Positions 57,219-59,082 of a DNA stretch of 64,000 nucleotides are shown piece after piece (the stretch's first letter is position 1; each line of letters starts with the position of its first letter). The stretch is from Alphaproteobacteria bacterium (lineage in GTDB: Bacteria > Pseudomonadota > Alphaproteobacteria > Rickettsiales > 21-14-0-20-44-7): contig JAYVPI010000001.1 of NCBI GenBank assembly GCA_043757405.1, positions 211,437-275,436 on the forward strand, written 5' to 3'. Under the pieces are notes generated by a model. It searched no databases, had not been told where the DNA came from, and worked only from the letters and a program-made list of their open reading frames with translations. The translations under genes were made by a program, and so were the position numbers.

Positions 57219-59082
57219 CAAATCCAAAATCGACAAAATCACCACTACCCCATTCCCCGCCAGCCGCAAAGTTTATGTCAAAGGCGAAATGCATGAGGAT
57301 TTGTGGGTAGGCATGCGGGAAATTGAGCTTTCCAAGGAAGCGAAGGAGCAGGATTTTTGGGTTTATGACACAAGCGGGCCATATAGCGATACGTCCAAAA
57401 ACATCGATATTTATAAAGGCCTGGAAGAACTGCGCCGCAAATGGATTTTGGCGCGTGGCGATGTTGAGGAATATGACGGGCGTCAGCTGAAACCGGAGGA
57501 TAATGGTTTTGCGACTTCCGAAGTTGAAGTTTTTGACCGTAAAAACCGCAAACCATTACGCGCAAAAAATGGCGCCAATGTTTCGCAGATGCACTATGCC
57601 CGCAAAGGCATCATCACCCCGGAGATGGAATATATCGCCATCCGTGAAAATATCGGCCGCAAGATGAACCCTCCTCCAACCTCCTCCCTCAGGGAGGAGG
57701 CTTTTTCTTCCCCCCTCCCTCAGGGAGGGGTTGGGGGCGGGTCCGCTGACCGTTTCAAGGGCGAACGCTTCGGCGCGAAATTCCCGGATTATATAACCCC
57801 GGAATTCGTACGCGATGAAGTTGCCGCCGGCCGCGCGATCATCCCCGCCAACATCAACCACCCCGAAGCCGAGCCGATGATTATTGGCCGGAATTTCAGT
57901 GTCAAAATCAACGCCAATATCGGAAACTCCGCCGTGACTTCATCAGTCGCTGAGGAAGTTGAGAAAATGGTGTGGTCAACCCGATGGGGCGGCGATACGA
58001 TTATGGATTTGTCCACCGGCAAAAATATCCACAACATCCGCGAATGGATCATCCGTAATTCGCCCGTTCCGGTTGGCACTGTGCCGATTTACCAGGCGCT
58101 TGAAAAAGTAAACGGCGTCGCCGAAGATCTGACCTGGGAAATTTACCGCGATACGTTGATTGAGCAAGCCGAGCAAGGCGTTGATTATTTCACAATTCAT
58201 GCTGGCGTGCGTTTGCCGTTCATTCCCATGACACAAAACCGCGTCACCGGAATCGTTTCCCGCGGCGGTTCGATTCATGCCAAATGGTGCATGACCCATC
58301 ACAAGGAAAACTTCACCTATACGCATTTCGAAGAAATCTGTGAAATCATGAAAAAATATGACGTCTCTTTCTCGCTCGGTGATGGCTTGCGTCCAGGCTC
58401 GATTGCAGACGCCAATGACGAAGCGCAGTTCGCCGAATTAAAAACTCTGGGTGAGTTGACTAAGATCGCATGGAAACATGATGTCCAGGTTATGATCGAA
58501 GGCCCAGGCCACGTGCCGATGCATCTGATTAAAGAGAACATGGATAAGCAATTGGCCGAATGTTACGAAGCGCCATTTTATACACTTGGGCCGCTGACAA
58601 CCGACATCGCCCCAGGTTATGACCACATTACTAGTGCCATCGGCGCCGCACAAATTGGCTGGTATGGCACAGCGATGCTTTGCTATGTCACACCAAAAGA
58701 ACATCTCGGCCTTCCCGACAAAGAAGATGTGCGTGTCGGCGTCGTCACTTATAAACTCGCCGCCCACGCCGCCGATTTAGCGAAGGGTTGGCCGGGAGCT
58801 AAGTTGCGGGACGATGCCGTGAGCCGCGCCCGCTTCGAATTCCGTTGGATGGATCAGTTCAATCTGAGCCTCGACCCCGAAAAAGCCCGCGAGTTCCATG
58901 ACGAGACTTTACCAGCAGAAGGCGCCAAATTCGCCCATTTCTGCAGCATGTGCGGGCCGAAATTCTGTTCAATGCGGATTTCGCAAGAAGTGCGTGATTA
59001 TGCAAAAGCCCAGGAGGGTGAGCGGGAAATGGCAGAGAAGTTCAAAGCCGAAGGCGGCGAGATTTATCGTAAGGTTGGTTAA
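57205..59082 (+). CDS. thiC: Phosphomethylpyrimidine synthase ThiC
   Basis: The 625-aa product contains [21 protein letters not shown] and the C-terminal [11 protein letters not shown] cluster motif. The start overlaps the bioA 3' end by 14 nt. Confidence 0.95.
57667..57747. repeat. CCTCC/GGAGG double-hairpin element inserted in frame in thiC
   Basis: The hairpins are CCTCCTCCCTCAGGGAGGAGG and CCCCTCCCTCAGGGAGGGG. The element encodes [27 protein letters not shown]. Confidence 0.75.

Follow-up and report, generated by a model that had tools for sequence, protein, structure and literature searches.

Palindromic repeats that lie in frame within protein-coding genes are known from Rickettsia as the Rickettsia palindromic elements (RPEs), RPE-1 to RPE-10 (Ogata et al. 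2000 Science 290:347; Ogata et al. 2002; summarized in PMC10969869). Some bacterial MITEs are also found inside genes, among them intragenic ERIC, Coxiella QMITE1 and the MITEs of Anabaena (PMC10969869). Another group of repeats, BoxC, PIT and TM_ECO, are intrastrand triplex motifs (Bergler 1992; Bachellier 1996; Hoyne et al. 2000; Holder et al. 2015, PMC4666352). In E. coli K-12, TM_ECO is reported to be always intergenic (23/23 copies; PMC4666352), and no mobile-element link was found for TM motifs (Holder et al. 2015, PMC4666352). Such a motif has a C-rich arm, a G-rich arm complementary to it and a further G-rich arm that is a mirror repeat; these three blocks follow each other on a single strand and are connected by short loops.

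REP and REPIN repeats, which reportedly go together with a RAYT transposase (Nunvar 2010; Bertels and Rainey 2011; Ton-Hoang 2012), are a further system of this kind. REPs are extragenic by definition.

Here, we describe a composite palindrome within thiC of an uncultured alphaproteobacterium, found in a 64-kb stretch of DNA that we refer to as the window. This element joins known kinds, in that it combines the in-frame habit of the RPEs with the architecture of BoxC/PIT/TM repeats, and it is presumably mobile. In the following, we present its anatomy, its relatives within the window and in other genomes, and discuss its possible origin.

Results

A nested palindrome in an intact thiC frame

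The host gene, thiC (phosphomethylpyrimidine synthase), occupies positions 57205–59082 of the plus strand and encodes 625 residues in one uninterrupted ORF that is intact across the insert. Its identity is established by the Pfam ThiC domains of an identical database protein (P0001) and of thousands of homologs, and by the match of its product to the ThiC structures 3EPM and 4S2A (E = 2e-289). A sequence-only reading of the window had placed an in-frame element of two hairpins at 57667–57747. We confirm the in-frame insertion within this ORF and set the limits of the element at 57668–57742 (plus strand; 75 nt, 67% G+C).

Two triplex-type units in inverted orientation make up the element, with a spacer between them. 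Unit 1 starts with the C-rich tail ACCCTCCTCC (57668–57677), which mirrors the adjacent pyrimidine arm at 9 of 10 positions and is linked to it through AA (57678–57679). Hairpin 1, CCTCCTCCCT / C / AGGGAGGAGG (57680–57700), follows with 10/10 pairs. The pyrimidine-rich spacer CTTTTTCTTCC (57701–57711, 11 nt) is the sole asymmetric part of the element and has comparable counterparts in the mutL copy and in the loci L113 and L059 described below. In unit 2, hairpin 2, CCCCTCCCT / C / AGGGAGGGG (57712–57730), has 9/9 pairs and is followed by a TT linker and the G-rich tail GGGGGCGGGT (57733–57742), a 7/9 mirror repeat of the purine arm; all parts are given on the plus strand. With these Watson–Crick and mirror matches, both units have the three-block architecture of a triplex motif. 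The two tails, ACCCTCCTCC and GGGGGCGGGT, are complementary at 8 of 10 positions and thereby form terminal inverted repeats, and an outer inverted repeat, ACCCTCCTCCAACC (57668–57681) and GGTTGGGGGCGGGT (57729–57742), surrounds both hairpins.

The unit pair can adopt two folds, a pair of hairpins or a single hairpin of roughly 33 bp with the spacer as its loop. The minimum free energy structure of the RNA is the single long stem, at -55.6 kcal/mol (z = -4.3), and the DNA fold has -26.2 kcal/mol; these values cover Watson–Crick pairs only, as folding tools do not model triplexes. The symmetry of the thiC and mutL units suggests that they can form such triplexes. The hairpins had thus been recognized correctly before, and the term ‘double hairpin’ is incomplete, as each hairpin carries a mirror-repeat tail and the element as a whole can adopt the long-hairpin fold.

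With a length that is a multiple of three, the element encodes 24 residues between N and S, a peptide rich in Pro, Ser and Gly. Four of its six frames are open, and the used frame has no stop because all-pyrimidine and all-purine runs cannot encode one. Judging from the intact frame and the precedent in Rickettsia, the element is apparently translated through. No Rfam family was found at the thiC element, and related loci gave sub-threshold miRNA-like hairpin matches only. A literature search with the literal element sequences returned primers and irrelevant matches only.

The insert is specific to this lineage and lies in a tolerant loop of ThiC

An alignment of ThiC orthologs, which the sequence-only reading had suggested as a check, supports a lineage-specific insertion: rather than being common to unrelated ThiC proteins, the segment is absent from all 28 of the closest orthologs (75–91% identity). 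In the nearest of these proteins (87% identity at the amino acid level, 80% at the nucleotide level), a 29-residue stretch of the window protein lies opposite K-AAAQAAPA-R, and a DNA alignment with the relative L001 shows ~63 additional nt in place of a short linker. Aligned to C. crescentus ThiC (3EPM), the insert maps between residues 162 and 167, where the N-terminal domain meets the radical-SAM core. This junction is variable in length, and two other ThiC proteins (P0064 and P0077) carry unrelated inserts in the same loop. AlphaFold2 models residues 152–183 as coil devoid of secondary structure, with a pLDDT of 28–41 compared to 85–97 in the flanks, so that the insert is predicted to be a disordered, floppy surface loop.

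No target-site duplication is visible at the borders of the thiC element (GATGA|...|CCGCT) or of the mutL copy (CGGAT|...|AAACG). As the ancestral linker is itself variable, neither a clean empty site nor a target-site duplication can be defined in thiC. The 64-kb window contains no IS, and no parent IS with matching ends was identified.

A decayed copy in mutL

A second copy of the element, 79 nt long, is found at 27308–27386 inside mutL (26727–28490, minus strand, 587 aa), where it reads TLHPTSFLREEEIIEASSLKEGAGEG on the minus strand. This insert, previously assigned to 27301–27385, is real. Its stems retain 8/10 and 9/10 pairs, and it folds into a single long stem of -52 kcal/mol (z = -4.8). 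It stands in place of PQAYEAIPEAAADTQT of the closest MutL (P0124, 83% identity), in a variable MutL linker just upstream of the conserved YPLGHAKAQLH, and the identical 587-aa MutL, insert included, is encoded by an independent Logan assembly of another run. Given the perfect stems in thiC and the decayed ones here, the mutL copy is, on this sequence comparison, the older of the two.

The two copies belong to one family, as had been proposed. Allowing for up to three mismatches, the core CCTCCCTCAGGGAGG occurs seven times in the window, exclusively within the thiC and mutL sites, against an expectation of 0.77; seven occurrences were reached in none of 100 shuffles. Homopyrimidine/homopurine hairpins of at least 8 bp are likewise confined to these two sites in the 64 kb (shuffle mean 0.24). 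The alignment of the thiC and mutL copies scores 53, compared to a mean of 19.4 (sd 3.8) for dinucleotide shuffles, none of which reached this score in 2000 trials; hence, the likeness does not result from composition alone. In shuffles that preserve the purine/pyrimidine pattern, the score was reached once in 2000.

The accompanying proposal of a common orientation is not secure, as the element hardly differs from its reverse complement (the alignment scores of the copies are 53 and 49 for the two senses) and the two genes lie on opposite strands. Based on the asymmetric spacer, the copies have the same sense on the plus strand, so that, with their genes on opposite strands, they are probably read from opposite strands. 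The resemblance of the encoded peptides (PTSSLREE in thiC, PTSFLREE in mutL) follows from the palindromic nature of the element. A TCCGCT 6-mer after both copies, apparent in the reverse-complement alignment, was considered as a shared flank and rejected: in mutL it represents conserved YPLG codons, which makes the match a coincidence.

A second palindrome family in four further genes

A second palindrome family is inserted in frame in dnaE, trmB, bioF and bioA, so that, together with thiC and mutL, six housekeeping genes carry such inserts within 64 kb. Compared to L001, BioA is longer by 24 and BioF by 20 residues, while the dnaE and trmB inserts fall inside Pfam domains. No such palindromes were found in 22 kb of L001.

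Related units in other genomes

Using a degenerate one-hairpin pattern on genome contigs, we found related units at no fewer than 118 loci from many phyla. A strict pattern for the CCTCCTCC subfamily, run on metagenomes, gave one match (L120), in which a stretch near-identical to the thiC element lies in non-coding DNA. An unrelated Rickettsiales MAG with 53% G+C (L059) has an identical stretch of 38 nt in a non-coding region. Among the hosts of such units in other genomes are pepP and pheT, and in L113 a three-hairpin version is inserted in frame at the boundary between a Peptidase_M24 domain and the C-terminal region.

Across these loci, the tail matches better as a mirror of the arm in 118 hairpins and as a direct copy in 18, with 57 ties; for asymmetric arms only, the ratio is 54 to 13. 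On these counts, we rejected the reading of the tail as a direct repeat permitting alternative hairpins and preferred that of a mirror repeat. We also considered a G-quadruplex in unit 2, where the purine arm and the tail read GGG-A-GGGG-TT-GGGGG-C-GGG, and rejected it. Since unit 1, the mutL units and several units flanking DUF559 genes contain only GG tracts, it is the mirror (triplex-type) symmetry that is the general property.

Association with DUF559 genes

Two DUF559 genes are present among the motif-selected loci listed (at least 118), and both are bracketed by units. In L087, a whole DUF559 cassette lies in frame inside an HMG-CoA-lyase-like gene. More broadly, a unit-encoded peptide is found at the end of 40 of 120 DUF559 homologs and of none of 240 control proteins. 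We inspected six more DUF559 genes at the DNA level, three of them picked regardless of the peptide signature: every one of them is flanked by a unit, and in five cases an inverted pair of units encloses the gene. In the genome of E. coli K-12, ycjD is a DUF559 gene that terminates in a degenerate hairpin; one of the 23 canonical TM_ECO copies follows on the same strand, 168 nt downstream of it. The first description of BoxC placed it next to envM/fabI, in what we take to be this intergenic region downstream of ycjD. The literature that we searched holds no link between BoxC and either DUF559 or ycjD.

This association is seen in other genomes only, from other phyla and from E. coli. The thiC element does not appear to be a simple deletion derivative of a DUF559 cassette, as its tails face outward; in most DUF559 cassettes they point toward the gene, with L046 as an exception.

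Discussion

Relationship to known repeat systems

In its genomic habit, the element resembles the RPEs: short palindromes lie in frame in unrelated alphaproteobacterial housekeeping genes whose orthologs lack them, the added peptide occupies a structurally tolerant surface site, and several families exist side by side in one genome. It differs in that the copies described here measure 75–79 nt and are homopurine/homopyrimidine sequences with 59–67% G+C, whereas RPEs are described as about 100–150 bp long; judged by published accounts of length and composition, the sequence family appears to be a different one. Moreover, the host is not Rickettsia (its nearest named ThiC and MutL are 74–76% and about 51% identical, respectively), and the element is built from triplex-type units, which occur across many phyla. 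As for copy number, the available 64 kb hold two copies of the thiC-type element, both intragenic, and extragenic ones are found in other genomes (L059, L120).

In its architecture, the element resembles BoxC/PIT/TM_ECO, sharing the three one-strand blocks and short loops as well as the G/C-richness, the multi-copy occurrence, the frequent arrangement in inverted pairs and the lack of a known function. The strict TM_ECO consensus (CCCTCNCCC-N3-6-GGGNGAGGG-N3-GGGNGAGGG) has no match in the window, while the same pattern does recover the canonical copy beside ycjD. ITxF-type counts give 29 TM copies for E. coli 55989, 1 for IHE3034 and 0 for Salmonella. In the element described here, the arms are CCTCCTCCC / CCCCTCCC, with loops of 1(3) and 2 nt; in addition, unlike the intergenic TM_ECO, both window copies reside inside ORFs and are apparently translated.

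The inverted hairpin doublet with a short spacer, which in thiC and mutL folds as one long hairpin, is reminiscent of REPINs, and units in other genomes bracket one small nuclease gene in the way that REPs bracket RAYT genes. However, there is no GTAG-type head at either end of the thiC or mutL copy and no RAYT/Y1 transposase is seen in the window, and the gene flanked elsewhere encodes a PD-(D/E)XK DUF559 protein rather than an HUH enzyme. With MITEs, the element shares terminal inverted repeats, small size, a non-coding origin and the occasional in-frame fusion with host ORFs; it differs in that the thiC and mutL copies have neither a visible target-site duplication nor an identified parent IS.

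Origin of the insertions

We consider it likely that the segment goes back to a selfish, non-autonomous palindromic repeat, which landed in thiC in this lineage and was kept as harmless. The element would have entered thiC at the junction where ThiC lengths vary and been retained there because it does no harm at that site, while copies elsewhere or out of frame would be purged by selection. The same process would have given rise to the older, decayed copy in the MutL linker, and the second palindrome family would have entered dnaE, trmB, bioF and bioA. Mobilization was probably in trans and due to a nuclease or transposase with specificity for the hairpin-plus-tail unit. Judging from other genomes, the best candidate would be the DUF559 (Vsr-like PD-(D/E)XK) endonuclease, whose gene has units of this kind on its flanks there. 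As the 64-kb window contains no transposase, RAYT or, by tblastn and HMM searches, DUF559 gene, mobilization is something that we purely infer.

Exaptation of the element is an unlikely alternative explanation for its presence. Its nucleic acid structure could be useful in cis, for example by pausing ribosomes or polymerases, by stabilizing the mRNA, as a hotspot of recombination or instability, or by sequestering internal Shine–Dalgarno-like GGAGG tracts; alternatively, the new loop could modulate ThiC. The very stable folds in RNA and DNA would suit such a role, and E. coli TM motifs have been tied to local genomic instability and can block DNA polymerase in vitro (PMC4666352). The still perfect stems of the thiC copy would also fit such a role, but a recent insertion explains them equally well, and the mutL copy decays visibly, as neutral DNA would. 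Likewise, the host genes are unrelated to each other (thiC and mutL here, pepP and pheT elsewhere), the sites are merely length-variable ones, and earlier work reports PIT/TM to be free of promoter, terminator or regulatory activity (PMC4666352).

A Pro/Gly/Ser-rich stretch might also have arisen in place, through slippage or drift of a low-complexity linker, with a merely compositional likeness between thiC and mutL. While both sites are length-variable and other ThiC proteins have their own inserts there, protein-level selection is not expected to yield a near-perfect nested palindrome in DNA, the similarity to mutL exceeds that in both composition- and purine/pyrimidine-preserving shuffles, and an unrelated genome contains the identical 38-nt stretch outside coding sequence. 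This reading is already largely refuted, and we regard it as highly improbable. A repeat-induced misjoin or a chimeric read that put the element in thiC is scarcely credible either, even though the assembly is that of an uncultured organism and the exact ThiC protein is recorded from a single source only, given that the frame is exactly retained, the flanking ThiC sequence is collinear with that of L001 (~96% identical in translation on the downstream side), the independent Logan assembly also contains the mutL insert and encodes the identical product, and in-frame inserts of a different repeat are found in four more genes of the window.

Returning to the reading as a selfish repeat, we tentatively raise the possibility that BoxC/PIT/TM-type repeats, including the thiC and mutL inserts, are non-autonomous partners of a widespread selfish DUF559-endonuclease cassette. 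In such a system, two inverted hairpin-plus-mirror-tail units would enclose the DUF559 nuclease gene, and solo units as well as inverted doublets would spread, at times landing in frame in essential genes. The pairing of DUF559 and repeat would then be a REP/RAYT-like partnership on another enzyme fold.

Implications

The thiC and mutL inserts bring together two literatures that have so far been unconnected. BoxC/PIT/TM repeats have been described as strictly intergenic and functionless, whereas the triplex-type repeats in the window are carried, and apparently translated, in the essential enzymes ThiC and MutL, as well as in PepP and PheT elsewhere. With six in-frame palindromic inserts in 64 kb, this uncultured alphaproteobacterium represents a natural experiment on the sites at which proteins tolerate 20–27 extra residues. 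The inserts also call for caution in annotation, since they make proteins longer, interrupt Pfam domains and give rise to spurious antisense ORFs. If the link to DUF559 is true, it would provide a mobilizing enzyme for a repeat that has been an orphan since 1992, that is, for 30 years, and DUF559, a very large domain of unknown function, would gain a role.

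The element in thiC and its insertion site

The 75-nt element in thiC (57668-57742) is an RPE-like in-frame palindromic insert built from an intrastrand-triplex unit of the BoxC/PIT/TM type. Its two inverted units, each a homopyrimidine/homopurine hairpin with a short tail, give the block order ACCCTCCTCC-AA-CCTCCTCCCT-C-AGGGAGGAGG-CTTTTTCTTCC-CCCCTCCCT-C-AGGGAGGGG-TT-GGGGGCGGGT. Both hairpins pointed out in the sequence-only reading are perfect (10/10 and 9/9 pairs) and are enclosed by an outer inverted repeat, while the C-tail mirrors arm 1 at nine of ten positions and the G-tail mirrors arm 2 at seven of nine. 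Alternatively, the pair folds as one long hairpin (RNA, -55.6 kcal/mol, z = -4.3; DNA, -26.2 kcal/mol), with the same layout as a REPIN. An Rfam search returned no family at the element. In a general scan of the 64 kb, homopyrimidine/homopurine hairpins of at least 8 bp were found at the thiC and mutL sites only (shuffle mean 0.24); likewise, all seven matches to a 15-mer core with up to three mismatches lie at the thiC element and at 27323-27370 (0.77 expected; seven reached in 0 of 100 shuffles).

The host gene is one uninterrupted 625-aa ORF (57205-59082, + strand), identified as ThiC by its match to the C. crescentus protein (3EPM/4S2A; E = 2e-289); Pfam ThiC domains are present on the identical database protein. 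When it is aligned with its 28 closest orthologues (75-91% identity), the stretch from ..ENxGRK to FKG/GGxxFGA spans about 9 residues in all 28, compared with 29 in the window, and the segment is accordingly an in-frame, lineage-specific insert. In the nearest relative with DNA compared (L001; 87% amino acid and 80% nucleotide identity over thiC), AAAQAAPA corresponds to M + element + SAD in the window, which is 20 codons longer on balance. A few linker codons were therefore lost or replaced along with the insertion, which is why neither a clean empty site nor a target duplication could be drawn against this relative.

The site is permissive. In the alignment to the C. crescentus structure, the break falls between residues 162 and 167, where the N-terminal domain meets the catalytic core, and AlphaFold2, run on the 29-sequence alignment, gives residues 152-183 a pLDDT of 28-41 and no secondary structure, with flanking blocks at 85-97. 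In two more distant ThiCs (P0064 and P0077), this loop holds inserts unrelated to the element. Two others (P0022 and P0067) have unrelated inserts near the C-terminus in the ThiC alignment A1; the inserts in these four proteins are 15-40 residues long and may be further in-frame repeat insertions.

A second, older copy in mutL

In mutL (26727-28490, - strand; 587-aa product), 79 nt (27308-27386) follow the block order of the thiC copy. This copy is decayed, with stems of 8/10 and 9/10 pairs and weaker tails, and folds as RNA at -52 kcal/mol (z = -4.8). Low-complexity composition fails to explain the likeness, since shuffles almost never reach the local alignment score of 53: dinucleotide shuffles average 19.4 (sd 3.8) with 0 of 2000 reaching it, and 1 of 2000 does so when the purine/pyrimidine pattern is preserved. 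The mutL segment thus belongs to the family, as had been proposed; the original observation is confirmed and its core interpretation supported. In the protein, the element-encoded LHPTSFLREEEIIEASSLKEGAGEG stands in place of PQAYEAIPEAAADTQT of the closest homolog (P0124, 83% identity), in a hypervariable interdomain linker immediately ahead of the conserved YPLGHAKAQLH. An independent Logan assembly from another run encodes the identical 587-aa MutL, which argues against an assembly artefact.

The two copies had also been said to share orientation and frame. This stands at the peptide level, albeit only because the element is palindromic: it nearly equals its own complement, and aligning the copies in reverse complement still scores 49. 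For the genes it is not secure. The sole asymmetric part, a pyrimidine-rich spacer (CTTTTTCTTCC in thiC, CTTCAATTATCT in mutL, and AAATTATCTTCTAT and AACTATTTTCTTCT in the Rickettsiales loci L113 and L059), makes both copies run in one direction along the + strand, which suggests that thiC and mutL probably read them from opposite strands.

Relation to intrastrand triplex motifs

An intrastrand triplex motif is defined as a hairpin with a mirror-repeat third block on the same strand, and the class has been described as BoxC (E. coli, 1990s), PIT elements (Hoyne and Maher 2000) and TM_ECO (Holder et al. 2015) (PMC4666352). The TM_ECO pattern, CCCTCNCCC-N3-6-GGGNGAGGG-N3-GGGNGAGGG, has 3610 copies in 262 proteobacterial genomes; of the 23 copies in E. 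coli K-12, all are intergenic and five occur as inverted pairs (PMC4666352). Its single strand forms a stable triplex in vitro, with none evidenced in duplex DNA or in vivo, and it has no known function and no mobile-element link that was found (PMC4666352). In thiC, two such units form an inverted pair, but their loops are shorter and their arm sequences differ; as the strict pattern has no match there, we call the element TM-like rather than TM_ECO. Given its mirrored tails, it may form a triplex as well.

A one-hairpin pattern scan of species-representative genomes yielded at least 118 loci from Planctomycetota, Chloroflexota, Latescibacterota, Gemmatimonadota, Gamma- and Alphaproteobacteria, Bacteroidota and others, and in most of those listed the hairpin is preceded, 2-3 nt away, by a C-rich stretch or followed by a G-rich one. 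For 193 such hairpins among the matches listed, the tail resembles the adjacent arm better as a mirror in 118 and as a direct copy in 18, with 57 ties (54 vs 13 for arms that are not self-symmetric), counts that are non-independent as many hairpins come from the same repeat families.

Some units sit within larger repeats. A ~150-nt MITE-like repeat on a Latescibacterota chromosome (OZ244744; L027, 285-435 and 1870-2020) shares the [C-tail + hairpin]...[hairpin + G-tail] layout; its 75-nt spacer includes TTGATC...TATAAT, a stretch that resembles a sigma-70 promoter. In Anaerolineaceae MAGs (L024, L029, L076, L116 and others), a triplex-type unit lies within a ~110-nt repeat with ~26-bp terminal inverted repeats (AGGCTGMKCCAAGAAAATAATTMCCCC), found on many contigs and often at contig ends.

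Residence inside and outside genes

A 38-nt stretch of the thiC element, AACCCTCCTCCAACCTCCTCCCTCAGGGAGGAGGCTTT, is identical in L059, where it lies in non-coding DNA beside two further units; this locus belongs to an uncultured Rickettsiales MAG (53% G+C), and nothing in the loci compared relates that MAG to the window. Downstream of purN, L120 has an L059-type unit whose loop is G, and then a second hairpin. In the same MAG as L059, the gene of an Xaa-Pro aminopeptidase carries a three-hairpin version in frame (L113), placed after the Peptidase_M24 domain and before the C-terminal region, and at L021 the B5 domain of PheT is interrupted by a unit, so that in-frame residence is recurrent for this repeat class. 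At L016, an open frame with terminase N- and C-terminal domains contains two units.

Since all-pyrimidine and all-purine runs cannot hold stop codons, only loops and linkers can give rise to them (e.g. TGA when the loop is G), and four of six frames are consequently open in the thiC element and three of six in the mutL copy; an arbitrary 75-nt stretch of the window is stop-free in one frame in 41% of cases. The resulting peptides have a high content of Pro, Ser, Gly, Glu and Arg, a composition that suits a flexible loop.

A possible link to DUF559 endonucleases

No candidate mobilising enzyme is encoded within the 64-kb window. DUF559, a Vsr-like PD-(D/E)XK endonuclease domain, offers a lead. 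Only two DUF559 genes were found among the at least 118 motif-selected loci listed, each between two inverted units: one in a Bacteroidota isolate (L046), the other a complete ORF between triplex-type units in a Phycisphaeraceae MAG (JAHBXG010000003; L087, 6528-8000). The latter cassette interrupts an HMG-CoA-lyase-like gene in frame, dividing its Pfam domain; P0260 (PF04480 + PF00682) looks like a second such fusion. Peptides typical of a translated C-tail plus hairpin (PHPNPLPEGEG, STSPRPSLPRRGKE and similar) end 40 of 120 homologs of this DUF559 and 0 of 240 ThiC/MutL controls. Six more DUF559 genes were inspected as DNA (L122, L123, L124, L127, L128 and L129, the last three picked irrespective of this signature): a unit flanks every one of the six, and in five there are inverted units on both sides. 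The usual layout, [hairpin + G-tail]-gene-[C-tail + hairpin], has its tails inward, whereas those of the thiC element point outward. In a Phycisphaerales MAG (L119, 5433-6429), two directly oriented units bracket the ORF of an HNH-type nuclease (5465-6271).

In E. coli K-12, the 3' end of the DUF559 gene ycjD lies inside a degenerate hairpin, CCCTCTCCC...GAGGGGG. On the same strand, a canonical TM_ECO follows 168 nt further downstream, in the interval that separates ycjD from fabI (L126, 2706-3261; NC_000913.3, ~1351205-1351760); by a rough estimate from 23 copies in 4.6 Mb, the chance of such proximity (within 200 nt) is ~0.002. A partial duplicate of the ycjD 3' end stands between the hairpin and this TM_ECO/BoxC, just upstream of fabI. 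BoxC was first described beside envM/fabI, in this very region. Our literature search found no paper joining DUF559 or ycjD to BoxC. The unit-flanked genes closely parallel RAYT genes flanked by REPs, and a PD-(D/E)XK survey places Vsr/DUF559 in one group with a group-I-intron homing endonuclease (PMC3424549). The units, including those in thiC, may be mobilised, with DUF559 as the candidate enzyme.

In-frame palindromes as a habit of this genome

The window holds a second, unrelated family of double-hairpin palindromes with the ends CGTCAYCCTG...CAGGRTGACG. Its members lie in bioA (56998-57063, +24 aa vs L001), bioF (54450-54499, +20 aa vs L001, with a second, small insert at 54043-54078), dnaE (42659-42733, inside the Pol III alpha NTPase domain) and trmB (49988-50028), and at the intergenic or boundary positions 44397-44476, 40125-40174 (dnaE stop/era start) and 20967-21092. 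This family also creates spurious antisense ORFs. Two long imperfect palindromes of TCGTTGATCGTTGATCG/CGATCAACGATAAACGA repeats lie at 22391-22460 and 46944-47025, one of them adjoining a tRNA gene (22267-22348).

Six housekeeping genes in 64 kb (thiC, mutL, bioA, bioF, dnaE and trmB) thus carry in-frame palindromic inserts, compared with none in 22 kb of the relative L001. By its intact frame and the Rickettsia precedent, the thiC insert is presumably translated. Palindromic in-frame insertion is a general habit of this genome, the same phenomenon as the RPEs of Rickettsia (reviewed in PMC10969869), here in another alphaproteobacterial lineage and with different repeat families.
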